Origin: a virus
IMG/VR virus record: IMGVR_UViG_3300042379_000679
Reading direction: 5' to 3' (one strand)
Length of the DNA stretch: 48,663 nucleotides
The notes below the pieces were generated by a model that made no database searches, had not been told where the DNA came from, and worked only from the letters and a program-made list of their open reading frames with translations. This document shows, one piece after another, positions 1 to 48,663 of this stretch. A program made the translations under genes and the position numbers. Position 1 is the stretch's first letter; each line of letters begins with the position of its first letter.

Positions 1-374
1 AAAGCACCGGCCTGATCGGCCGGTGTGAAGTGGTTGAAGCTCAGAAAGCAAAGCACCGGCCTGATCGGCCGGTGTGAAGTGGTTGAAGCTCAGAAAGTAA
101 AGCACCGGCCTGATCGGCCGGTGTGAAGTGGTTGAAGCTCAGAAAGTAAAGCACCGGCCTGATCGGCCGGTGTGAAGTGGTTGAAGCTCAGAAAGCAAAG
201 CACCGGCCTGATCGGCCGGTGTGAAGTGGTTGAAGCTCAGAAAGCAAAGCACCGGCCTGATCGGCCGGTGTGAAGTGGTTGAAGCTCAGAAAGTAAAGCA
301 CCGGCCTGATCGGCCGGTGTGAAGTGGTTGAAGCTCAGAAAGTAAAGCACCGGCCTGATCGGCCGGTGTGAAGT
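1..374. repeat. Tandem array of a 49-bp unit, left part (7.6 units). It continues across the circular junction with 48292..48663.
   Basis: The unit AAGCACCGGCCTGATCGGCCGGTGTGAAGTGGTTGAAGCTCAGAAAG[C/T]A recurs with an exact 49-bp period. The only polymorphic base sits at 49,98,147,196,245,294,343 = C,T,T,C,C,T,T. The array breaks at 375. Each unit holds a perfect hairpin, CACCGGCC-TGATC-GGCCGGTG. Confidence 0.97.
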
Positions 375-2879: not shown

Positions 2880-3089
2880 TTACTTAGAGTCGCAATAAGT
2901 TTGGAAACCTTGGCCTGTTTTGAGATACCTGGTCGCAGCCACAGACGTTTCCAGACTCCACCCAAGCTCATCATGCAAATAATCGCAGATCGCAACTGCG
3001 GATCGTCTCTTGGCAAGATCTCTTGCCTGAGTCAACTGACCGTTGATCAAGCTCTCAGCCATAAATTCAAACGCTTCTGATCGTTTCAT
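2880..3089 (-). CDS. Hypothetical protein (69 aa)
   Basis: The 2880..3146 ORF is trimmed to the ATG at 3089 (AAGGGA upstream). The predicted TSS of the 3149..3177 promoter lies downstream of the 3146 ATG. Confidence 0.55.
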   Translation of the reverse strand: MKRSEAFEFMAESLINGQLTQARDLAKRRSAVAICDYLHDELGWSLETSVAATRYLKTGQGFQTYCDSK

Positions 3090-3148: not shown

Positions 3149-3177
3149 AATATATCGACCGGATGAGCCAGAGTCAA
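3149..3177 (-). promoter_or_regulatory. Sigma70-type promoter of the 3089->2079 mini-operon
   Basis: The minus strand reads TTGACT-17 nt-TATATT. A second TTGACA box lies just upstream at 3195-3200. Confidence 0.55.
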
Positions 3178-3313
3178 AAAGATTTCTCAAAAAATGTCAA
3201 CGGCCTTTGATCTAACTTAATGGCTTATTCCATAGGGTTTGACGCTGATTTGGGCCTGAACTTCGGCCTGAATATGGGTGCGCGTGTACATACGCCTATA
3301 GGCGTGCGTGAGG

Positions 3314-3487
3314 CAGTGTATCCCCGTAGGATATCATATTTAGCACTGTATCTATAAGTATCACTGTATGACACTGTATCTGGGTAGATCACTGTATCTA
3401 TATTTGGCACTGTATCCGAATAAGGCACTGTATAGGTGTAGAGTGGTGTAGGACAGTGTATCAGGAGTCAGTTTACACCAGTGTATC
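3314..3487 (+). repeat. Iteron cluster B: 9 direct copies of CA(C/G)TGTAT(C/G/A)
   Basis: Copies start at 3314, 3344, 3362, 3372, 3390, 3408, 3426, 3454 and 3479. Four of the eight successive spacings are exactly 18 bp. Confidence 0.85.
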
Positions 3488-3489
3488 TA

Positions 3490-4240
3490 TAAGGCTGAAT
3501 ATACTACTGAGTGGGATACTGAACAAAGTTATACTTTGCATTTTACGTCTGTAATACTTCAGAGACAGAAGACGACCTTTTCCCCTACACTACACCTGAC
3601 TCACATCTTGTTTCCTCTAGGCCTTGTATGAGAATCCTCATATCACCTATCAGAAACCTGTGAATCCTGATTCAACTCAACCTTAGACGTCATTTCCCAC
3701 TTAAGGGAACATTCCATCTGGCTGAAAGAATCTGGTAGTGGGCGAATACTAGGTCTGGTCAGCTTACCGATTAGACTCGTTTTAGTGTAGGGACCAGGTT
3801 GTTAGGTATCAACAGTGCCTGGATTCGATAGTGAGTCTACCCGTCAAGCCGAATGGCGATCCTCATTTACCACTGTCCAGTGCTGCACTCAGCGAGCGTT
3901 CGTCAAACGCCTTCCCCCTGGACACTCATCTATCACTCACTGACCCTTGCCGGAGGATCTGACCAACTTCCCAGTACTGGGTATGTGTGGCAAGGAAACC
4001 TGTACTACGATATTGATCGCGTTTTTAGGCTGTCAGCGTTTTCTTGTCAAAGAGTTGTGAGATATACGACGGATGCGATCCAGTTCGCGTATAGGCGGGT
4101 GATTGACTCACCACTTATCTTGCCTCCGTCACCCAGTTTAACCGTCGGTTCATGCTGGGTAGTAGATTCAGCTCTCGCTGATGAGGGGGTTATCGTATTC
4201 AGCGCAAGGCTTGGTCCGCTCTTTTTCAACCCTGATCTCA
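3490..4240 (-). ncRNA. Candidate non-coding transcript or leader, unclassified
   Basis: A consensus promoter at 4247-4275 fires into about 750 nt. On that strand there is no ORF with a ribosome-binding site, only ATG-ORFs of 23 aa or fewer once the one overlapping the -10 box is excluded. Confidence 0.25.
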
Positions 4241-4246
4241 CCATCA

Positions 4247-4275
4247 ATTGTACATCACCCTCATATCCATGTCAA
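4247..4275 (-). promoter_or_regulatory. Strong sigma70-type promoter pointing left into the ORF-free region
   Basis: The minus strand reads GTTGACA-17 nt-TACAAT. Confidence 0.55.
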
Positions 4276-4417
4276 CGACCTACCAAACGCATAGCTTGAC
4301 AGACTTACAAAAACGTATAAACACCATATATCCCACCCTCCCATTAAACTATAAGCCCTTACATTATAACGGATTGGCGAGTTTTTAAAAAATATGTACA
4401 TAAAATTTAGTCGCGTA

Positions 4418-4446
4418 TTGACATTCATATGTCGATAGACTAACAT
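4418..4446 (+). promoter_or_regulatory. Promoter of the rightward early operon (4493-7874)
   Basis: TTGACA-17 nt-TAACAT. The spacer contains TATGTCGATA, which is also found at 11481. Confidence 0.5.
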
Positions 4447-4492: not shown

Positions 4493-4894
4493 ATGGCGAA
4501 CTCGCTCAAGTACTCAACAGAATTTAATCCAGGTCAACTGGCAGCTATGAAGGGCATCCTGAGAAAGAATGGATGGGAGACAGAGGATACGATTGTCAAC
4601 GGCATCGAACTCTATGCATTTGGGTATGGATATGCCATCGCTGACTGGAAAAAGATCTGGTCCGAAAAACCTTTCCCTGAAGACTTCCCTTATATACCGC
4701 TTCTCATGCTACCTCACCATAAACTGCTGGGAAAGATCCAGCACGACATTAACCATAATCCAGACCGCAAACGTCACATGGAGAAGATGCACGAAAAGGC
4801 CTACTTGACTTACGTTGAGTCTTACCAAACAGATTGGGAGTCTCAAGACTTGCTTTATAGATACAAAAAACTGATGAAAGAGGCTCAAGTATGA
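4493..4894 (+). CDS. Hypothetical protein (133 aa)
   Basis: GGGAGGA lies 4 nt upstream of the ATG. It is the first gene of a tightly packed operon. Confidence 0.8.
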   Translation: MANSLKYSTEFNPGQLAAMKGILRKNGWETEDTIVNGIELYAFGYGYAIADWKKIWSEKPFPEDFPYIPLLMLPHHKLLGKIQHDINHNPDRKRHMEKMHEKAYLTYVESYQTDWESQDLLYRYKKLMKEAQV

Positions 4895-7944: not shown

Positions 7945-7979
7945 CCCCTTGAGCTTGTTGCTTGAGGGGTCTTTTTTTT
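7945..7979 (+). terminator. Rho-independent terminator of the rightward early operon
   Basis: 10-bp stem CCCCTTGAGC/GCTTGAGGGG (two G-U pairs) with loop TTGTT, followed by T8. Confidence 0.8.
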
Positions 7980-8337
7980 AATACTGCACATCGATTTCAC
8001 GCACAGAATACGGGTAACAGCCTCTCGGAGGTAATCTCCTGACAAAGTTACCCACATTGACCTGTTCGTCGTCCGTAGGTGGCTTTACAGGCTCGCTATT
8101 GGCAATCCCTGCCATCTTGTTTCTACGCTTGATCTCAGCAGCAAAAGCTCTTGCCCCAGGCATCCCTAGCGACTTTTTAATTTTTGCTTTCCTGCACTCC
8201 TTGCAAACAACAGCCGAGTTTCCCGCCAAAGCCTCCTTGTCATTATTGACAATAGAGACAGTGACGGTTAAGTCGTTGATCCCACAGTAGATGCAGGAGC
8301 GTTTATCACGCCCCACAATGGTTATCCAGTTTGTCAC
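7978..8337 (-). CDS. Zinc-finger protein, degenerate HNH-like (119 aa, GTG start)
   Basis: CIYCG...(28 aa)...CKECRKAK resembles the CxxC...CxxC frame of HNH nucleases but lacks the D-H catalytic pair. The GTG start overlaps the stop of the frame-B ORF 8334..9032. Confidence 0.55.
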   Translation of the reverse strand: MTNWITIVGRDKRSCIYCGINDLTVTVSIVNNDKEALAGNSAVVCKECRKAKIKKSLGMPGARAFAAEIKRRNKMAGIANSEPVKPPTDDEQVNVGNFVRRLPPRGCYPYSVREIDVQY

Positions 8338-8466
8338 GATTCGATCCTTCTTCCAAGCATCACGCCGTCGATTTCAACGTATTCAAATTCATCCTGAGTT
8401 GGGCCAGGCATCAGGCAATCCTCGGCATAGTCAACGCCGCATGGGCAATTCCCATCCTCATCGCAA

Positions 8467-9300
8467 TCAACTGAGAAGATCACGGGCAACCATGGGTTCT
8501 CTGGTAACGGTGTTCCGAAGTGATTGTTCAAGTATTTTCCATGCTGTTGCTGCCACAACCGGAACCTGACCGTTCCCAAGGGCTTTAAGCCTTCCCACCC
8601 TATCGGCCACCCCATGATCCAACCGACCCACAGAGGGTTCAGCTGACCACCAGTCTTGGATTCCTCTCTCTCTCTCTCTCTCTCTCTCGCAAAGACCTGT
8701 CTGGGCAGTTGGTCCAGCCGATTCCGTACAGTCCCGTCCTTGTTGATCGATGTGGTCTTCTGACCCGCAGTATCCTTCCAGTCCCGGCTGTTGGGAGTGA
8801 CCCACTTCTCTTTCGCACAAGATCCAGATGCGTTTTCTGAGGTGGTTAGCTCCACAGTCGGCAGCAGATAACACTGTCCACGCCGCATCAAACCCGAGGT
8901 CGGCCATTTCTCCGAGAACTCTGTCGAGTCCTCTTGAGGTAAGGGCTGGGACGTTTTCCAGGAAAACGAATCGGGGTTCCACTTCGCGAATGACTCGAAC
9001 GGCTTCAAAGAAGAGCGATGATTTTTCGCCATGTATACCTTCCCCCTTGCCAGCCAGACTGATGTCCGTGCAAGGAAATCCGGCAGCGATCACATCCACG
9101 TAGTTTCGCCAGCCTGTTGCGTCAAAGGTCTTTATGTCATCGTGGATATGCATCTCGGGGAGGAACCCATCGGCAATCCTCTGAGCCAGCACCTTGCGGC
9201 AATATGGATCAATCTCCACAGCACAAACAGGCGTATGCCCCAGTAGTAATCCACCAAGGATTCCTCCACCAGCCCCAGCAAATAGATGCATTTCCCGCAT
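8467..9300 (-). CDS. DNA (cytosine-5) methyltransferase
   Basis: Motifs: FAGAGGG (I), GFPCTDIS (IV), ENV (VI), RKRIWIL (VIII), then WWSAEPSVGRL...RLKALGNGQVP (X). GGAG lies 6 nt upstream of the ATG at 9300. Confidence 0.85.
   Translation of the reverse strand: MREMHLFAGAGGGILGGLLLGHTPVCAVEIDPYCRKVLAQRIADGFLPEMHIHDDIKTFDATGWRNYVDVIAAGFPCTDISLAGKGEGIHGEKSSLFFEAVRVIREVEPRFVFLENVPALTSRGLDRVLGEMADLGFDAAWTVLSAADCGANHLRKRIWILCEREVGHSQQPGLEGYCGSEDHIDQQGRDCTESAGPTAQTGLCERERERERGIQDWWSAEPSVGRLDHGVADRVGRLKALGNGQVPVVAATAWKILEQSLRNTVTREPMVARDLLS
8664..8688. repeat. (CT)12/(GA)12 dinucleotide microsatellite inside the methyltransferase gene
   Basis: 25 nt of perfect alternating CT. It encodes ERERERER in the methyltransferase frame. 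Confidence 0.97.
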
Positions 9301-9354
9301 GTGACACTCCAGTAGACCCTGTAAATATGTCAACGCAGAATATCATAATACATG

Positions 9355-10635
9355 TCAAACAGCAATCACTCTTCTCATATTACCGCATAAATGCGTGTAA
9401 CCTAACGAGATACTATCCACGCAGTCGTCATGTACATCCGCAGGAGTCCCAGTAAAGGAATCGATCTCCTCGAAGCATGCATCCGTCCAGCCACCAAGAA
9501 CATAGAAAATGTTTCCAGCTGATGCCGCGCGGCTAAAAGGGACTGCCCTTGTCAATTTGTTTGACCCAGGTGAACTCCAGGCAACACGCCTTCCGGCCAG
9601 ATTCTTCAGTTGATGCTGCAACAACCGCTTCCCAGCCGAGCCAGGCTCAACCTCAATTACAATCGTTGTTCCAGGTCCATCCTCATCCGATGTTTGCGAG
9701 ATTTTTGGATCAACGTCCTCAGCCGAATATTGCTGGCGAATCTGGTCAAAGATGATCACCTTCTCTGTCCCTGGAATCAGGCCCATCAGAGTCCCAACCG
9801 TGTAATCCGACCTTCGGCCCACAGTCGCAGCACAGTCCCAACTTCGGCACATAATGAGCCTCTCGGGTATCGGTCCTTGCCATGGTCTGATCCACGATGA
9901 CTTCATCAAAGCCCCGTCCGTATCGCAAAACAGCCCTTCAACTTCCTGTTTGTAGAAAGCCCCATCATAAGCAGCCTTAAGGCTTTGCACGAAGAAGTCA
10001 GGGTTGAACGTGTTGGAATATGATGGAGCATGGATCATCTCAGCAATGCCAGCCTGGATGGCTCGGTATTCCCACCTGTTTTTCCCTCGAGGGGTAAAAG
10101 TTGCCCATAACTTACCGGGATTCTTTCTTAAGCGGCCCAGCAGAACTTTATAGGTATCTTCATCGCAAAAGCTGGCCTCATCCATGTACACAGCCCCAGC
10201 ATTAGTCCCCCGCAGCCTGTCCGGCTTATCCGCAGATCTCCACAAAATTGTCCGGTCACCTTTGACCTTCGTTTCCATATCCGTTTTGTTGTGGCTCATG
10301 ATCAGGCCAGACTGACCGTAAAGCTCTTCAAACATACGGAACGTGGAGTCTTTGAGGATCGTAAAAGTCGGTGCAACGACAATCGTGAGCGTCCCTTTAG
10401 GCTGGTTCATAATCTCGATCACGCCAGCACGAGTCTTCCCAGCACCAACCCCACCCACAAAAAATTTCTGCTTCGATGGAGAGACCCAGAACTGCAACTG
10501 CTGTGGAGTAAAGGTACTTACATTATGTATCTGACGACGACCCGTCTTCTCCTTCCGAAGCTGCGAGAACAGGGAGTTCTGATTCATTCGTTCCAGCCGG
10601 AAGTCGTCCTGATCCATCGACATATTTTTTGACAT
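9355..10635 (-). CDS. terL: Terminase large subunit
   Basis: Walker A GGVGAGKT and Walker B VYMDEA. The C-terminal nuclease-type region reads SWDCAAT...DYTV...HDDCVDS. The ORF is trimmed to the ATG at 10635 (GGGGAA upstream). Confidence 0.9.
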   Translation of the reverse strand: MSKNMSMDQDDFRLERMNQNSLFSQLRKEKTGRRQIHNVSTFTPQQLQFWVSPSKQKFFVGGVGAGKTRAGVIEIMNQPKGTLTIVVAPTFTILKDSTFRMFEELYGQSGLIMSHNKTDMETKVKGDRTILWRSADKPDRLRGTNAGAVYMDEASFCDEDTYKVLLGRLRKNPGKLWATFTPRGKNRWEYRAIQAGIAEMIHAPSYSNTFNPDFFVQSLKAAYDGAFYKQEVEGLFCDTDGALMKSSWIRPWQGPIPERLIMCRSWDCAATVGRRSDYTVGTLMGLIPGTEKVIIFDQIRQQYSAEDVDPKISQTSDEDGPGTTIVIEVEPGSAGKRLLQHQLKNLAGRRVAWSSPGSNKLTRAVPFSRAASAGNIFYVLGGWTDACFEEIDSFTGTPADVHDDCVDSISLGYTHLCGNMRRVIAV

Positions 10636-11290
10636 TTTCGTTCCCCTGGTACTGCCTCGAGAGTTCTGAACTAATTTCTGCCAGCGTTTTCCCTGCGATT
10701 CGCTGCTCAACCTGGTCGTTCGACATCTGCCTGTCCCAGAACTGCAACTTGACCTCAGGTTTGGCGAATTCCATACCCCTGGTACGCTCAAGCCACCATG
10801 CCGCAGGAATCCAGTTCCCCTTCTTGGCTGCGTCCAGGATCACGTTTACACAAAGGTCTCGAGTCGCGTTCTGGGCATTATCAAAATCTATTTTTCGCTG
10901 TGGGTTCTTCTTCATGTACAGCCAGAGCGTTTTGCGATGCACGCCGATAGCTTTAGCGATTGCACTGATCTCATAACCCATCTTTGCCGACTCAATAATC
11001 TTGGCCCAGTGATTACGTATCTTCTTCTGAGGCTGATTGTTAGCCAATCCCTTGCGAGTCAGGAACGCCGGCTTCGTCGTCATCAATTCCAGATTGGCTT
11101 CAACGTCATCACTAAAGTCGTAACGAGTATCAAGATTAGGAACCTTAACAGACTTCTTGGGCTTAACTTTAGGAGTAGGCTCGACTTCGGTTTCGGTTTC
11201 GATCTCGGCTTTATGAACAGTTGTTTTCGGTGGTCGTCCACGCTTTTTAGGCGTTTCGCCGGATTCAGATGGGGCTGATTTCTTTGCCAT
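10523..11290 (-). CDS. terS: Terminase small subunit (HTH-containing)
   Basis: It lies directly upstream of terL. HTH segment ISAIAKAIGVHRKTLWLYMK, an AAWWLER motif and a basic N-terminus. The ORF is trimmed to the MAKKS start at 11290. Confidence 0.65.
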   Translation of the reverse strand: MAKKSAPSESGETPKKRGRPPKTTVHKAEIETETEVEPTPKVKPKKSVKVPNLDTRYDFSDDVEANLELMTTKPAFLTRKGLANNQPQKKIRNHWAKIIESAKMGYEISAIAKAIGVHRKTLWLYMKKNPQRKIDFDNAQNATRDLCVNVILDAAKKGNWIPAAWWLERTRGMEFAKPEVKLQFWDRQMSNDQVEQRIAGKTLAEISSELSRQYQGNENVKKYVDGSGRLPAGTNESELPVLAASEGEDGSSSDT

Positions 11291-11462
11291 AATTGCTTGT
11301 CGCTTCCTCGATGGAGTCGGGTTCCAGCGTCTGTTCAATAATGTCCACAACGATTTCCGGCACAGCACCCATTTCCGCTCCAGCAGCGATATAGAGTGCC
11401 ATTTCGACAGGGTCAATCACCCTATCAGGCTCGACAACGAGAACAGATAAGCATTCATTCAT
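11265..11462 (-). CDS. Hypothetical acidic protein (65 aa), possibly on a leaderless mRNA
   Basis: First ORF after the divergent promoter. The ATG lies 6 nt after the -10 box, with no SD. Confidence 0.4.
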   Translation of the reverse strand: MNECLSVLVVEPDRVIDPVEMALYIAAGAEMGAVPEIVVDIIEQTLEPDSIEEATSNYGKEISPI

Positions 11463-11520: not shown

Positions 11521-11549
11521 TTGACATATTCTGTGGAATTGTGTACATT
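11521..11549 (+). promoter_or_regulatory. Promoter of the tRNA and exonuclease unit
   Basis: GTTGACA-17 nt-TACATT. Confidence 0.55.
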
Positions 11550-11575
11550 TATGCCATCGGACGTTACGTCTGGTT

Positions 11576-11647
11576 CCACGGGTCGCCACATGGGTAGGCA
11601 AAAGGCTCAAGGGCTTTCGGATGCAGGTTCAAATCCTGTCCCGTGGA
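11576..11647 (+). tRNA. tRNA with an atypical anticodon arm. Anticodon CAA if a 7-nt loop is assumed; identity uncertain.
   Basis: - Acceptor stem: perfect 7 bp, CCACGGG/CCCGTGG, with U8.
- D arm: GCC/GGC, with GG in the loop.
- T arm: GCAGG-TTCAAAT-CCTGT.
- Variable region: 5 nt.
- Anticodon stem: AAAG[G]/[G]CTTT, with a G-G at 31:39 and loop CTCAAGG. Confidence 0.6.
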
Positions 11648-11676
11648 TTGGCTGCCAGGTCGCATACTTCTTCGGT

Positions 11677-17805: not shown

Positions 17806-18222
17806 ATGATGGATGCAGATCAGAAAATCAGAAATGCTTTTTCGGACGCTGAAAAGGCTGTACCAGATGCAGAATTGAAATACACGATTATCCGAGAGGC
17901 TTTTGAGTCTCACAAAGATGATGATGAACGACAGTACGAGTACATTTACGAGCGATTGGCGAAGCCTAAAAGGTCTGCTCTTGCCCGTGATATGAACGCA
18001 TGGTTATATCTACATAAGATAGCACATGAACTTCTGGCTCAGTCTCAGATCTGCTTACTTAATGCTGAAGGTGAAACACCTGGCCCACTACTTGCCCGAT
18101 TGCAACGCCCAGTGATTAGGTCGCCCAGGAACTGGAGGATTTGCGGCATCTGTGATGGGACTGGTGAAGACCCAACGATTGCTCATTGCAATGGATGCTG
18201 GGGACACGGGTATTATGTCTGA
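17806..18222 (+). CDS. Hypothetical protein with a DnaJ-type CxxCxGxG zinc motif pair
   Basis: The C-terminus reads CGICDGTGEDPTIAHCNGCWGHG. AGGAGG lies 5 nt upstream. Confidence 0.65.
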   Translation: MMDADQKIRNAFSDAEKAVPDAELKYTIIREAFESHKDDDERQYEYIYERLAKPKRSALARDMNAWLYLHKIAHELLAQSQICLLNAEGETPGPLLARLQRPVIRSPRNWRICGICDGTGEDPTIAHCNGCWGHGYYV

Positions 18223-20620
18223 GCTAACCTATTCTGCGTTAATGGATTGCGAGTTTTCAACTTATCCGTACCAGGATGAGGCGATTGATAAGATTAGGTC
18301 ATGGGTCTACGAGGATGATCATAAAGCTGGAATTCTCCAGATGGCGACCGGATGTATATCCGGTGATGCAATCGTGACTATTAACCGTGGAGGCAAGGGT
18401 GTTACTCGGTCTCTTCGGGATCACTTTAGGCTTCAGGCTGACCCAAGGGTCAAACCTCATGTAGTAAAGCGTGTCCGAAGTTTTAACGGTAAGCACGTTG
18501 AATGCAATGGATTCAGCCGTATCCAGTCCAGCGGGGTCAAGCCTGTTGTTAGGGTTCGATTTGCAAGTGGACGAGAACTCGTATGCACTCCTGATCATAA
18601 GATCTTGTCGTCGAATGGATGGGTTGAAGCAAAGGACTCGTCAGGCAAGAGTATCGTAGTCGAAGCAAGCCAACGCAAGTCCGGTGACCGGGAGCCGAAG
18701 CCTAAGAAGCGATACAGGCAAGTTAACAAACTTTACTATCACCCGTACGCTGGGAAATGCGTCTCGAACAGAAGAGGAAAGTCTCTAAGGCTTTATCGCG
18801 TGGCTTACCATAGGCTTGTGGTTGAGTCTGAAATGAATGAGATGCCCCTTGACAAGTACATTGAATGCTTGAGAAACGGAGACATTGGCAAGTCATGGGT
18901 TTATCTTGACCCAGCAGTAACCGCAGTTCATCACGTCAACGGAGATCATACTGACAACAGGAGCGGAAACCTGGCGATTATGAGTCATCAGGAGCATTGG
19001 TCTCTTGAAGGCAAACAAAGCAATCACCTGAACATCGGCAAAACGCTGGTTGAAACAGACAATGTCTTTGCCGTTGAGAATGCTGGCTGGATCGATACCT
19101 ACGACATCGTTAGCGTAGACAAGACAAGCAATTTCATTGCCAACGGAGTCGTTGTACATAACTGTGGAAAGACCGTAACCGTAGGTATTCTGATTCGTCA
19201 GTTGATTGAGGAGGGGTTTATCTCTCGAGCCTTGTTCGCAGTCCACCGGACAGAACTTGTGAAACAGGCAATAGACACGTTTGAATTGTGCGGGCTAATG
19301 GTGGGTCGTGAGCAAGGTTCCCATCACGGGTTTGCCCTAGGTGATCCGCATGTGGTTTGCACAACCATTCAGTCCATGACCAAGCGATGCAAGCGGTATC
19401 AGCCGGACGATTTCCAGTTGATCATCACGGATGAAGTCCATCACGCAGGAGAATCCAATAAGACATACTCATCCGTTTACGACCACTTCCCTGACTCAAA
19501 ACTTGTTGGGGTCACTGCAACGATTGATCGGCCTGACGGACAGAGTCTGAAGCGTTTCGAGGAAGTCGTTTACAGCTACTCGCTTTATGACGCGATCCAT
19601 GATCCTGCTGGCCCATTTTTATCACCTGTCAAGTTTGTCCGGTGTTCTCTGGGGGTTGACCTGAGGGGATGCAAAACAACGGGTAAGAATGGCGATTTCG
19701 CTCAGGGAGATCTTGGTCGTAAGATCCAGCCAGCCATCGAGCTATTAGCGAACGCGATCAGCAAAGAGATTGAGGACCGAAAGAAGATCATTGTCTTCAT
19801 GCCTGATGTTGGCTCGTCTATCGCGATGGCTGATGCCTTGAAGCAACTGGGACATGCTGCGGACTGGGTCTCCGGTGATAAGCCTGACCGTGATAGCACG
19901 ATACAGCGTTACAAAAACGGTCTCACAAAGATCCTTGTCAACTGCCAGATCCTCACCGAGGGGTTTGATGACAAGCCCACAGACTGTGTTGTTCTAAAGC
20001 CCACTCGAAGCCGGATCGCATACGCCCAGATGGTGGGTCGTGGTACGAGGCTTTGCAAAGATAAATCAGACTGTTTGATTCTGGATTTCTCACACACGAC
20101 AGACATGGATCTGATTGGGCCAAGCTCGTTGACAGATTGTGAGGAGGTTGATTCCAAGCGTGCTGAGGAGTTGGTCGAGGAGGGTGTTGATCTGTGGCAA
20201 GCTGTGGAGCGAGCCAAGACGGAACGTAAACAACGACAGGAGATCAAGGTTCCGGTTGCCAGGCTGGACATGAGTTATCGGCGGGTCGAGATTAATCCAT
20301 TTGAGCTTGCGGCTTCATTGGGTGTGTCCCGAGCCATGCTGACCAACGCCAATCGATTCGGAGAGCTTGCGACTCCCGCCCAGAAGGATTTTCTGAACAA
20401 GTCTGGGATGGCAGATGTCAATAACATGACCAAGCGTCAGGCTTCGCAGTTGATCGGCCAGATCATTGACAGACGAAACTCGGGGCTGTGTTCGATCAAA
20501 CAGTTGAACTACCTGATTTCGCTGGGGATGAAGCCTGAAAAGGCTCGAGGATTGCAGTTTGGACAGGCAGCAGAAGCGATTCAAAAGTACAGGTCGAATC
20601 AGGCTGGATCGCAAGAGTAA
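18215..20620 (+). CDS. SF2 (DEAD/DEAH-type) helicase precursor interrupted by an intein; the extein is about 531 aa
   Basis: The split Walker A, MATG|...|CGKT, is restored on splicing. Other motifs are DEVH (ITDEVHHAG), TAT (VGVTATIDR) and QMVGRGTR (VI). Confidence 0.88.
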   Translation: MSELTYSALMDCEFSTYPYQDEAIDKIRSWVYEDDHKAGILQMATGCISGDAIVTINRGGKGVTRSLRDHFRLQADPRVKPHVVKRVRSFNGKHVECNGFSRIQSSGVKPVVRVRFASGRELVCTPDHKILSSNGWVEAKDSSGKSIVVEASQRKSGDREPKPKKRYRQVNKLYYHPYAGKCVSNRRGKSLRLYRVAYHRLVVESEMNEMPLDKYIECLRNGDIGKSWVYLDPAVTAVHHVNGDHTDNRSGNLAIMSHQEHWSLEGKQSNHLNIGKTLVETDNVFAVENAGWIDTYDIVSVDKTSNFIANGVVVHNCGKTVTVGILIRQLIEEGFISRALFAVHRTELVKQAIDTFELCGLMVGREQGSHHGFALGDPHVVCTTIQSMTKRCKRYQPDDFQLIITDEVHHAGESNKTYSSVYDHFPDSKLVGVTATIDRPDGQSLKRFEEVVYSYSLYDAIHDPAGPFLSPVKFVRCSLGVDLRGCKTTGKNGDFAQGDLGRKIQPAIELLANAISKEIEDRKKIIVFMPDVGSSIAMADALKQLGHAADWVSGDKPDRDSTIQRYKNGLTKILVNCQILTEGFDDKPTDCVVLKPTRSRIAYAQMVGRGTRLCKDKSDCLILDFSHTTDMDLIGPSSLTDCEEVDSKRAEELVEEGVDLWQAVERAKTERKQRQEIKVPVARLDMSYRRVEINPFELAASLGVSRAMLTNANRFGELATPAQKDFLNKSGMADVNNMTKRQASQLIGQIIDRRNSGLCSIKQLNYLISLGMKPEKARGLQFGQAAEAIQKYRSNQAGSQE
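18353..19162 (+). mobile_element. Intein (270 aa) with an HNH homing-endonuclease domain, inserted in the helicase P-loop
   Basis: - Block A: CISGDAIVT.
- Block B: CTPDHKIL.
- HNH domain: HHVNGDHTDNRSGNLAIMSHQEH.
- Block F: TYDIVSVDKTSNFIANG.
- Block G: VVVHN, followed by the +1 Cys. Confidence 0.85.
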
Positions 20621-46594: not shown

Positions 46595-48097
46595 TTAGGA
46601 GACCTCCTCGATGTCTGTCCAACCCTCGCGTGACTCGTATTCTTCCAGTTCTGCCAGCAAGCTCACATAAGACTGGACTAAAGCCTTGTTCACCCCTGAT
46701 CGACTGGGAGACAGGGAATCGCTATTGCGTTCGCCCTCGATCTTGGACCGTTCACCTGTGCTGGCAGGAACCTTTACCGAGCCGATGTTATCGCCTTCAG
46801 AAACCGTTGTTTTAGCTGGATCAGCCTGGGGTAGAATCTCGTTGCGAATTTCATCCCTAGCGATCCCAAGCGAGTCAGCATCTGGTGAATCAGATTTGCC
46901 GTAGCCAACGATATCGCGAGACTCATTAATAGTGATAACTCCACCACCGAGAAGACGAATCGCACGATTGGCTGCAATCTGTTCACGGTCATCAAGCTCC
47001 TCAACTGGCGAATAATCAAATGTGAACTTGATTCGACCGGACCTCACGTCATCAGGATCTTCAAAGTCGATCAACAGCTGATGCGTCATCTCGTCCGCAA
47101 AAACCTTCTGCAACGGAATCAATCCGTGGACGTATGCTGCCCTGATGGCATCTGCGTAGGTTCCGTATGCACCCGTGTTGTCTGTGTTCAGCCCCAGAAC
47201 CGATGTGTTCAACCCCATTGCCGCGAGAACCGTAGCCTGTGCCGACTTGGGAATCTCTACCAGACCGATCTCTTCCGGCGTGAATCCCATCTTGTGCAGT
47301 TCGTAAGCACCCGTCAAAACGGTAGGGTCTCCACGCTGGTCACCTGTGAGGGCATCCTTGAGCCGAGATTTGATCGCCTTGGCGTCGTCCTCTGAGACCG
47401 TGAAATCACCCTTGGGGGTCGCGATAAGCCCAGGAACCGCAAAATTGCGAAGCAGAGAGGCTGTGTAGGTGGATGCCTCGTTTAAAACAGCAATCTCACG
47501 CACATGGGCGAGCAGAGGACTCCAGCCGACCCGATCCTGATCCATGTCGATATAACGACGGATGTGAATCACCCTGTCCGCAGGAACGTCCAGCATCTTC
47601 CCGTTGATGTTGTATCGCCAGGCTGTGAGGTAATCTGATCCGTCCGTTGGAAAGAGGGGAGAAACCTTATCAGCCCTCCAGATCTTCAACTCCACTGGCT
47701 CGCCCAGGCGATTCTTGATCTTCTCGATCCAGACATTGCCGTAACAGCTTGCATCCCTGACATATGCACCGACAAACGCTGCTTCACCCACATAAGGGTG
47801 AGGACGACGTAACAATGTCAATGCAGGGTGATTATGGATCGGATCTTCGATTCCTTCGTCATCCACTCGCACCACTTGTAGATTCGGGACGGACCAGTTT
47901 CTGGCAAGCCAGTCGATACCGGAAGCTACCGTGGAGTTCTTCCATAAACCCTGGATAAGCATTTCCGTGTAATCGTACGTTGTTCCTGGCAACCAAACGC
48001 TATAAGGGCGATATCCACCACCCAGCCCACCCCAACCGGAGTAGGGCGTTTTGCCGCGAAACAGCGATTTGAACGATCCATATAATCCCATACTCAT
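46595..48097 (-). CDS. Portal protein (HK97 family)
   Basis: About 500 aa with a portal-like layout. The ORF is trimmed to MSMGLYG, because the upstream extension KREKNKKQKK is the translation of an A/T-rich tract. Confidence 0.85.
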   Translation of the reverse strand: MSMGLYGSFKSLFRGKTPYSGWGGLGGGYRPYSVWLPGTTYDYTEMLIQGLWKNSTVASGIDWLARNWSVPNLQVVRVDDEGIEDPIHNHPALTLLRRPHPYVGEAAFVGAYVRDASCYGNVWIEKIKNRLGEPVELKIWRADKVSPLFPTDGSDYLTAWRYNINGKMLDVPADRVIHIRRYIDMDQDRVGWSPLLAHVREIAVLNEASTYTASLLRNFAVPGLIATPKGDFTVSEDDAKAIKSRLKDALTGDQRGDPTVLTGAYELHKMGFTPEEIGLVEIPKSAQATVLAAMGLNTSVLGLNTDNTGAYGTYADAIRAAYVHGLIPLQKVFADEMTHQLLIDFEDPDDVRSGRIKFTFDYSPVEELDDREQIAANRAIRLLGGGVITINESRDIVGYGKSDSPDADSLGIARDEIRNEILPQADPAKTTVSEGDNIGSVKVPASTGERSKIEGERNSDSLSPSRSGVNKALVQSYVSLLAELEEYESREGWTDIEEVS

Positions 48098-48291
48098 ATC
48101 ATAACATAAGCAGGTGTGCATAACAAGATGGGAGTGAGGGGGAGGCTTTTTCTGTTTTTTATTTTTTTCTCTTTTAAGAATTCTCGACAAAGCGCATGGC
48201 CGACACGCCTGGGGCCACGGCTCCGAAAAAATCGCGAAATTGTGTCACATAAACTAGGTGTCCATGTCATGAAAACACCCTGGAAACAAGT

Positions 48292-48663
48292 AAAGCACCG
48301 GCCTGATCGGCCGGTGTGAAGTGGTTGAAGCTCAGAAAGCAAAGCACCGGCCTGATCGGCCGGTGTGAAGTGGTTGAAGCTCAGAAAGTAAAGCACCGGC
48401 CTGATCGGCCGGTGTGAAGTGGTTGAAGCTCAGAAAGTAAAGCACCGGCCTGATCGGCCGGTGTGAAGTGGTTGAAGCTCAGAAAGCAAAGCACCGGCCT
48501 GATCGGCCGGTGTGAAGTGGTTGAAGCTCAGAAAGCAAAGCACCGGCCTGATCGGCCGGTGTGAAGTGGTTGAAGCTCAGAAAGCAAAGCACCGGCCTGA
48601 TCGGCCGGTGTGAAGTGGTTGAAGCTCAGAAAGTAAAGCACCGGCCTGATCGGCCGGTGTGAA
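48292..48663. repeat. Tandem array of the same 49-bp unit, right part (7.6 units)
   Basis: Same unit and period. The polymorphic base at 48340,48389,48438,48487,48536,48585,48634 = C,T,T,C,C,C,T. The window ends inside a unit. Confidence 0.97.
48537..48663. other. 127-bp terminal overlap identical to 1..127, indicating circular closure of the assembly
   Basis: Register and polymorphic bases match (48585=C vs 49=C; 48634=T vs 98=T), and both segments end in ...GGTGTGAA. No other register reconciles the two C/T patterns. Confidence 0.85.

Follow-up and report, generated by a model that had tools for sequence, protein, structure and literature searches.

A conserved block between two divergent gene blocks

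The viral record IMGVR_UViG_3300042379_000679 of IMG/VR is a DNA of 48,663 nucleotides (this whole stretch is referred to below as the window), and near its left end the minus strand carries a block of ~720–745 nt, from position 4240 to ~3520/3495, in which no reading frame survives in relatives. The block sits in a 1.3-kb gene-free gap that separates two divergent gene blocks: plus-strand small genes begin at 4493 and minus-strand small genes begin at the ATG at 3089. A first-pass annotation, made from the letters of the window, had described a consensus promoter firing into about 750 nt without a credible open reading frame (ORF) and had proposed either a long non-coding RNA or a structured leader. 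This proposal is supported by the conservation of the promoter and of the core of the block, by a consensus structure and by the strand preference of that structure.

The promoter-like site that the annotation had placed on the minus strand at 4247–4275 is present, with TTGACA (4275–4270), a 17-nt spacer and TACAAT (4252–4247), an 11/12 match to the consensus with an optimal spacer. One other 11/12 site was found in the whole window (40067–40038, TTTACA-18-TATAAT), and since ~0.8 such matches are expected by chance per shuffled genome (48.7-kb window), the match alone is not significant. What gives the site its weight is conservation, since every one of the 13 homologous copies extending this far has it: the −10 hexamer is invariant in 13/13 copies, the spacer length is kept in every copy, and the −35 hexamer is the same in all homologues except one (contig L011, TTGACG). 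The whole promoter is unchanged in 12 of the 13 copies despite differing flanks, and L011 keeps the promoter although the surrounding sequence differs. By sequence, this site, P4275, has the features of a sigma-70-type promoter, namely TTGACA/TATAAT-like hexamers, a spacer of 16–18 nt and retention in relatives. Transcription is predicted to start at ~4240, inside a conserved GGUGAG, and the conserved 5′ end of the block lies 6 nt from the −10 box. Back to back with P4275 is a divergent plus-strand promoter (TTGACA-17-TAACAT, 4418–4446), kept in relatives, for the plus-strand small-gene block. The next promoter on the minus strand (TTGACT-17-TATATT, 3149–3177) belongs to the downstream small-gene operon beginning at ATG 3089. 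Two relatives, L002 and L011, retain it despite having a different first gene downstream.

Scans with exact words or anchored on proteins, run on IMG/VR, JGI metagenomes and Logan/ENA assemblies, yielded ~20 contigs that contain the block; of the 22 matches in the metagenome scan, six were real. The contigs reduce to 10 distinct full-length variants and three partial ones, and every one belongs to a single tight lineage of metagenomic phages with portal proteins 90–99% identical. Seven contigs from different samples (L149–L155, JGI and Logan) carry a byte-identical 728-nt copy (e.g. L149 3978–4705), and naturally short versions of the predicted RNA measure 533 nt (L011) and 622 nt (L006). Neither GenBank phages nor PLSDB plasmids gave a BLASTN match to the block, and the 17 matches of an 18-mer scan of GTDB genomes were all due to chance. 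An nhmmer profile of the block, run over 1.2 Mb (80 GP88-family loci and 18 portal loci), found nothing outside the same lineage, and did not find the block in 78 distant-phage contigs carrying the neighbouring GP88-family gene. A search with the adjacent 112-aa protein returned only near-identical copies or contigs that end short of the RNA, and two gapped motif patterns run against IMG/VR retrieved the same 7–8 contigs again, with no divergent relatives. Since the best portal match among cultured phages is at most 32% identical, the lineage is without a host or taxonomic anchor.

In the homologue alignments, 1- and 2-nt indels are scattered along the block, and no ORF of either strand escapes damage, each being lost to a frameshift, truncation or deletion in two or more variants. 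As described earlier, a 66-codon minus-strand ORF (4247..4047) starts inside the −10 box, with its TTG on the last base of that box. The remaining minus-strand ORFs had been put at 23 codons or fewer, all lacking a Shine-Dalgarno sequence, and this part of the annotation requires amendment: an ATG ORF of 24 codons (3717..3643), the longest downstream of the promoter, exists, and a 29-codon GTG ORF (4114..4025) that follows GGAGG had been missed. Of the 11 variants covering the former, 8 have it intact, and the differences between variants are all non-synonymous; the frame of the latter is not kept across relatives. The same is true of the plus-strand ORF (3853..4299) that had been set aside for its composition and lack of a ribosome-binding site; it encodes 148 aa with no PHROG match. 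Independent gene callers run on the relatives called nothing in the 1.6-kb gap. That the ~750 nt downstream of the promoter hold no credible ORF is thus borne out by the relatives.

Mean column identity is 0.93–0.99 over 4130–3575 and lower at the two ends, with 0.64–0.73 in the first ~110 nt and 0.82 in the last ~60 nt. Neighbouring genes at the same loci show 70–94% nucleotide identity, and the alignable core of the block is at least as conserved as these flanking genes. The comparison of homologues shows the core of the predicted RNA to be under strong purifying selection.

Domains and consensus fold of the predicted RNA

A consensus structure was obtained with RNAalifold from nine full-length variants and comprises 179 pairs in ~28 helices. 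Of the alignment cells at paired positions, 98.5% form a standard pair, compared to 36–43% when the partners are slid. Six pairs are changed on both sides, compared to a shuffled mean of 2.7, and ~20 pairs carry one-sided, G·U-compatible changes. Four double changes fall in the core, at columns 120/185 (GC to AU in three sequences), 365/377, 438/504 and 465/473 (UA to CG in three sequences). Two features of the alignment are independent of the folding program: one loop remains of the GNRA type in all its versions (GAGA, GGGA, GAAA) as the stem beneath it co-varies, and hairpin modules are gained, lost or capped exactly at the bases of helices. Taken together, the sequence variation is shown to fit a predicted five-domain structure on the strand of the promoter, with an almost invariant core and swappable peripheral hairpins.

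The conserved body, ~721 nt on the minus strand (3520–4240) as delimited by alignments, nhmmer matches, the consensus fold and the lack of a conserved ORF, ends at UUUGUUCA (3527–3520). It is followed by a variable 3′ tail (3495–3519, GUAUCCCACUCAGUAGUAU...), which is present in the window and in L006, L007, L031 and L033 and is replaced in L002, L003, L004 and L011. The 5′ peripheral domain (4131–4240) occurs in three unrelated sequence versions among relatives and corresponds to the first ~110 nt, with their low identity. In the window it holds the hairpin UCAGC-GAGA-GCUGA (4181–4168) and the stem ACCCAG/CUGGGU (4160–4155 with 4136–4131). The hairpin reads UCGGC-GGGA-GCCGA in L003 and L033, where an A-U pair of the stem has become G-C, and has a GAAA loop in L006.

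Domain 2 (4068–4130) is a near-invariant junction closed by GACGG/CCGUC, the helix that contains the 120/185 pair, and presents the hairpins GGUGA-GUCAA-UCACC (4112–4098) and GCGA..UCGC (4088–4075); in L011 the first of these is swapped for a different, longer one. Domain 3 (3937–4053), closed by UCUUUGAC/GUCAGUGA, contains CCUUGCC/GGCAAGG and an optional 41-nt module (4045–4005, with a hairpin at 4020–4007) that is cleanly absent from L004, L005, L011 and L031. At another junction a hairpin of ~25 nt is inserted in L004, L005, L025 and L031, and not in L011. In domain 4 (3874–3924), UGUCCAG/CUGGACA pairs around two hairpins (3911–3895 and 3893–3882), and the 365/377 pair is AU in seven sequences and CG in one.

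Domain 5 (3551–3873) is large and is closed by long-range helices that pair 3873–3855 with 3577–3551; another long-range helix of the predicted fold joins 3852–3833 to 3778–3759. Its inner arms (3732–3598) are removed in L006 and L011, where the helix GAUUCA/UGAGUC is capped by a 6-nt loop. A G to A change in column 419 keeps a long-range pair (GU to AU) and would break a competing local hairpin. Both hairpins seen by eye in the first-pass annotation proved to be real. The one placed near 3796–3824 is CCAGG..UGUUG-AUACC-UAACA..CCUGG (3822–3794), with a compensatory UA to CG change in three sequences as well as GC to GU changes; the one near 3628–3641 is UAUGAG-GAUU-CUCAUA (3642–3627), with an 11-nt loop insertion in L033 and a loop change in L004. 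A G-rich segment, AGGUGUAGUGUAGGGG (3582–3597), has three conserved C-rich candidate partners, at 3792–3783 (10 bp), 3746–3734 and 3452–3434 (8+6 bp), the third of which is absent in L006 and L007. The homologue alignment contains no covariation that discriminates among these alternative pairings or supports them.

The consensus fold favours the strand of the promoter. On the sense (minus) strand the consensus used in this comparison has 172 pairs and −135 kcal/mol, with 15 broken cells, two of them A·C; its antisense counterpart has 147 pairs and −108 kcal/mol, with 32 broken cells, 12 of them A·C, which would read G·U on the sense strand. A strand call from single-sequence folding z-scores (−4.5 versus −1.9 with 20 shuffles) was discarded as a small-sample effect, since it was lost with 40 shuffles. 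As a control, the other non-coding region of the neighbourhood (1301–2026, 726 nt) gave z of −0.2 and −0.4; without a fold signal, it was rejected as a sister RNA.

The downstream repeat array and the phage genome

Directly after the RNA lie nine direct GATACAGTG repeats in a single orientation on the minus strand (3314–3487), the number of which differs among relatives. The motif has 22 matches in the genome versus nine expected, clustered at 3314–3487 and 1520–1562. The two clusters of GATACAGTG-type repeats (3314–3487 and 1520–1620) lie 1.8 kb apart, both in minus-strand orientation, and L006 and L007 have three extra CTCCCTAGTTAT repeats beside the first. In the RNA sense the repeat zone is C-rich and G-poor (C/G 2.0–2.2 at 3505–3389), and the structured body is mostly G-rich. 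After a purine-rich GGGGAAAAGG near the 3′ end of the RNA, AT content reaches its highest level in the region (62–65% AT, 3583–3467), and a 12-bp palindrome downstream, CGCCTATAGGCG (3293–3304), recurs inside the block as CGCGTATAGGCG at 4086–4097. On the plus strand, no promoter-like site of at least 9/12 was found within 3500–4240; a weak hairpin followed by a T-run was seen, by eye only, near 4199–4226. The second gene-free region (1301–2078, ~780 nt) is bounded by a strong terminator (2049–2027) and by the GP88-family gene. Relatives conserve it to ~85%. It is C-rich in the minus sense, has CGTTGACAT promoter-like boxes and the second repeat cluster, and displays no unusual folding on either strand (z ~−0.3).

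The phage is temperate, with a tyrosine integrase (14702–13671) and a tRNA-Leu (11575–11648), and also encodes YqaJ, Prim-Pol, an intein-bearing helicase and ThyX. The RNA is surrounded by ~10 kb of small orphan genes, with the terminase genes (11416–9355) on one side and the portal gene (48190–46595) on the other, the latter being reached across a circular junction that L011 confirms. The ~10 kb between terminase (7978–11416) and portal (46595–48190) is an unusual break of terminase-portal adjacency; the RNA lies mid-way and the orphan genes form two divergent blocks. A search of the neighbouring small ORFs against Pfam and PHROGs for a binding partner was uninformative, and the cumulative GC skew has its minimum at 14–16 kb, not at 3–4 kb.

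A 49-nt tandem repeat occupies both ends of the window (1–374, 7.6 copies; 48288–48663, 7.7 copies), immediately upstream of the portal gene; read on the minus strand, each unit has a GC-rich hairpin, CACCGGCCGATCAGGCCGGTG, and then CUUUACUUUC. The array is absent in relatives (match only 369–466; 168 nt in L011); it could be peculiar to this strain, or assembly at the circular junction may have inflated it. RNA-mediated antitermination, an idea prompted by these 7–15 tandem terminator-like hairpins, was dropped because relatives that keep the RNA lack the array.

Several other features of the genome were recorded. A DNA methyltransferase gene (8334–9333) consists of two overlapping ORFs on either side of a (CT)12 repeat (8664–8688); L005 has (CT)17 at this site and L149/L150 encode an intact 379-aa PF00145 enzyme. 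The gene could be phase-variable or the split a sequencing slip. An intein that carries an HNH endonuclease domain interrupts an SF2 helicase (ResIII/DEAD/Helicase_C, 18152–20620). The tRNA-Leu(CAA) gene at 11575–11648 is directly preceded by a TTGACA-17-TACATT promoter-like site (11521–11549) and lies inside the 5′ end of the long YqaJ ORF, so the true start of the YqaJ gene must be further downstream. Downstream of the RNA, a very acidic, Trp-rich protein of 179 aa (2079–2618) has no family match. Its gene is the only one of the downstream operon to be kept in those relatives that reach it (70–92% nucleotide identity), and the protein might be a DNA mimic or an anti-defence protein.

Known RNA classes and the interpretation of the block

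The first-pass annotation could not assign the region to a known class by eye and had suggested an Rfam scan. With cmscan and Rfam 15 (4227 families), nothing in the block was found at the gathering score or at E≤10, and four variants gave nothing at E≤5; permissive matches, in the window and the four variants, were only junk, lying outside the block or below threshold. Since Rfam, phages and plasmids are all without a match, the RNA would represent a new family. The GOLLD and ROOL families are included in Rfam, and the same scan of the window and the four variants found no match of either covariance model in the block. GOLLD and ROOL are large 'ornate' RNAs of phages and prophages that assemble into homo-oligomeric RNA-only complexes (PMC12286853). 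The candidate resembles them in being a phage-borne non-coding RNA of more than 500 nt, with a conserved multi-domain structure and a variable periphery, without an associated protein partner gene and with a role that is still obscure. Unlike them, it is not beside a tRNA gene (tRNA-Leu is 7.3 kb away) and is confined to one narrow phage lineage, and the Rfam result indicates no homology to them in sequence or in structure. It is therefore of the same general kind as GOLLD and ROOL and a member of neither. Motifs in a large IMG/VR survey of structured RNAs average 67 nt (PMC10690425). Group I introns interrupt a gene and have a conserved catalytic core; group II introns have six domains, among them a conserved domain V, and usually encode a reverse transcriptase. 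Both share the size range of the candidate, its modular domains with optional peripheral hairpins and its occurrence in phages. Unlike introns, the candidate has a promoter that abuts its 5′ end, leaving no room for flanking exons, and no covariance-model match. Intron identity was ruled out, since 6 nt separate the −10 box from the conserved 5′ end and the block divides neither an ORF nor a tRNA. No homing-endonuclease ORF was found inside the block, and no reverse transcriptase or RNA-guided-nuclease domain among the ORFs scanned with Pfam/PHROGs.

It is likely, in our assessment, that the minus strand carries a functional structured RNA. For the more specific reading that 4240 to ~3520/3495 is the stand-alone gene of a structured non-coding RNA of ~720–745 nt, of a family outside Rfam, the evidence tips the balance slightly in favour. 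That the block is an independent unit is argued by the downstream operon keeping its own promoter even when its first gene is swapped, and by the lack of a fold signal in the neighbouring non-coding region 1301–2026. Host RNA polymerase would make this RNA early and abundantly, and the RNA would work by virtue of its own fold, be it as a scaffold, in a ribonucleoprotein (RNP) or in another trans-acting role, rather than as an mRNA. Transcription would end, or the transcript would be trimmed, in the unstructured, C-rich GATACAGTG zone at 3505–3314, with 3′ end formation by way of Rho or of a repeat-bound protein before the downstream promoter at 3177. The outcome would be a stable ~0.7-kb RNA acting through its fold.

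Several observations weigh against this stand-alone RNA gene. The candidate is known here from its sequence, with a transcript that is predicted. No intrinsic terminator is predicted on the minus strand between 4240 and ATG 3089, so the RNA may be just the 5′ part of a longer transcript, and it is only the composition of the repeat zone that points to Rho termination or a roadblock there. A search for an antisense target of the RNA in the rest of the phage genome found none (best E=0.44). The z-scores of single-sequence folds are modest and fail to tell the strands apart: against 40 dinucleotide shuffles, the sense strand scores −1.8 to −4.6 and the antisense strand −0.1 to −3.5. The alignment of homologues, which the first-pass annotation had suggested as a source of covariation, did yield compensatory pairs and G·U-compatible changes; however, true covariation comes down to ~5 pairs, and the sequences that gave the structure also served to score it. 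The covariation is thin because the sequences are close (78–97% identity among homologues), and is suggestive rather than statistically decisive. The confinement of the family to a single phage lineage and the thin covariation temper the finding.

The lack of a terminator also fits a cis-acting leader or switch, in which the block would be the structured 5′ part of a long P4275 transcript and would control read-through into the genes from 3089 by attenuation or processive antitermination, possibly via alternative pairing of 3597–3582 with its C-rich partners. Its logic would resemble that of P4 seqA/B/C, P1 c4 RNA or the lambda PR′ leader. As in the phage leader and immunity RNAs available for comparison (the lambda PR′ 6S leader, HK022 put, P4 CI and P1 c4), the RNA is promoter-proximal and untranslated and heads co-directional phage genes, which on the minus strand extend as far as the portal and structural genes; parts of it are complementary to upstream and downstream sites, namely the G-rich segment and its three conserved partners, and the phage is temperate, with an integrase. 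Immunity RNAs of the P4 CI and P1 c4 type are short processed antisense RNAs with a loop that pairs with two or more sites of one leader. However, the candidate is 5–10 times larger than these RNAs, the downstream operon has a conserved promoter of its own at 3177, and the gene directly downstream is swapped among relatives while the RNA stays constant. The partner at 3452–3434 is missing in L006 and L007, the alternative pairings are without covariation support, no terminator was found, and neither the C4 antisense family nor any other Rfam leader gave a match. To our knowledge, leaders and antiterminators need far less structure than the ~720 nt of near-invariant, multi-domain fold found here. 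We consider a leader or switch rather unlikely. A replication-origin module, with the P4275 transcript serving as a structured primer or R-loop RNA like ColE1 RNA II or the T4/T7 origin transcripts and the GATACAGTG repeats as initiator iterons, appears less likely still. A strong promoter would here drive a structured, untranslated RNA of ~0.55–0.7 kb towards a replication-type feature, as it does in ColE1; the promoter lies 720–930 nt upstream of the nine-repeat array, whose copy number varies, and a second array is 1.8 kb away. The purine-rich GGGGAAAAGG and the AT-rich stretch after it would suit this scheme, as would the first ~110 nt, which are the most variable part of the candidate and are the variable specificity region of RNA II. 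In ColE1, RNA II has its 3′ end at a functional origin, and its first ~110 nt enclose an antisense RNA I unit with promoter and terminator of its own. Here, no antisense unit like RNA I was detected, nor a plus-strand promoter for one within 3500–4240, and the downstream feature is an iteron-like array that is a putative origin only. Moreover, the replication genes (Prim-Pol, helicase, YqaJ) are 12–17 kb away, the GC-skew minimum points elsewhere, the AT-rich stretch is mild for a DNA-unwinding element and no initiator gene was found nearby.

The two remaining explanations do without an RNA function. The block could act at the DNA level only, as dense protein-binding or regulatory sites between divergent early operons, the RNA having no function of its own. 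It does lie in the main divergent control region, beside repeat arrays, the palindrome CGCCTATAGGCG recurs within it, and the single-sequence fold signal is similar on both strands. Against this, compensatory and G·U changes, a retained GNRA loop and hairpin-precise indels are properties of RNA structure, the strand asymmetry of the consensus fold agrees with the direction of the promoter, and 700 bp of near-invariant sites without internal repeats would be unusual; we regard a pure DNA element as very improbable. A degraded or frameshifted protein gene, which the first-pass annotation had foreseen that homologues might reveal, or a carrier of one or more small-protein genes, is hardly credible. 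The ORFs of 148 aa (plus strand), 66 aa, 29 aa (after GGAGG) and 24 aa (all minus strand) speak for coding, the last being the one that most variants keep intact, yet the variants hold no conserved frame, the substitutions in the 24-codon ORF all change the protein, the 148-aa ORF is without a PHROG match, and a decaying gene would not exceed its intact neighbours in conservation.

Returning to a stand-alone structured RNA, we tentatively consider a more ambitious possibility, which we hold to be doubtful: that with it a new class of giant phage RNAs, ornate and trans-acting, has its first known member. Such an RNA would be made early from a host-type promoter and would owe its action to its fold in three dimensions, perhaps as a ribozyme, in an RNA-only assembly, or by scaffolding a host or defence protein or serving as its decoy. 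The 5′ domain would in this case be a specificity module and the adjacent repeat array the site of the 3′ end of the RNA. We know of only a handful of bacterial and phage non-coding RNAs longer than 500 nt, nearly all of them ribozymes, RNP cores or, recently, RNA-only cages. The near-invariant core, the natural short forms and the three interchangeable 5′ domains make the candidate tractable for structure determination, and its constant association with an iteron-like array may tie RNA structure to the control of transcription or replication. The candidate RNA thus offers a way into asking what large phage RNAs do.

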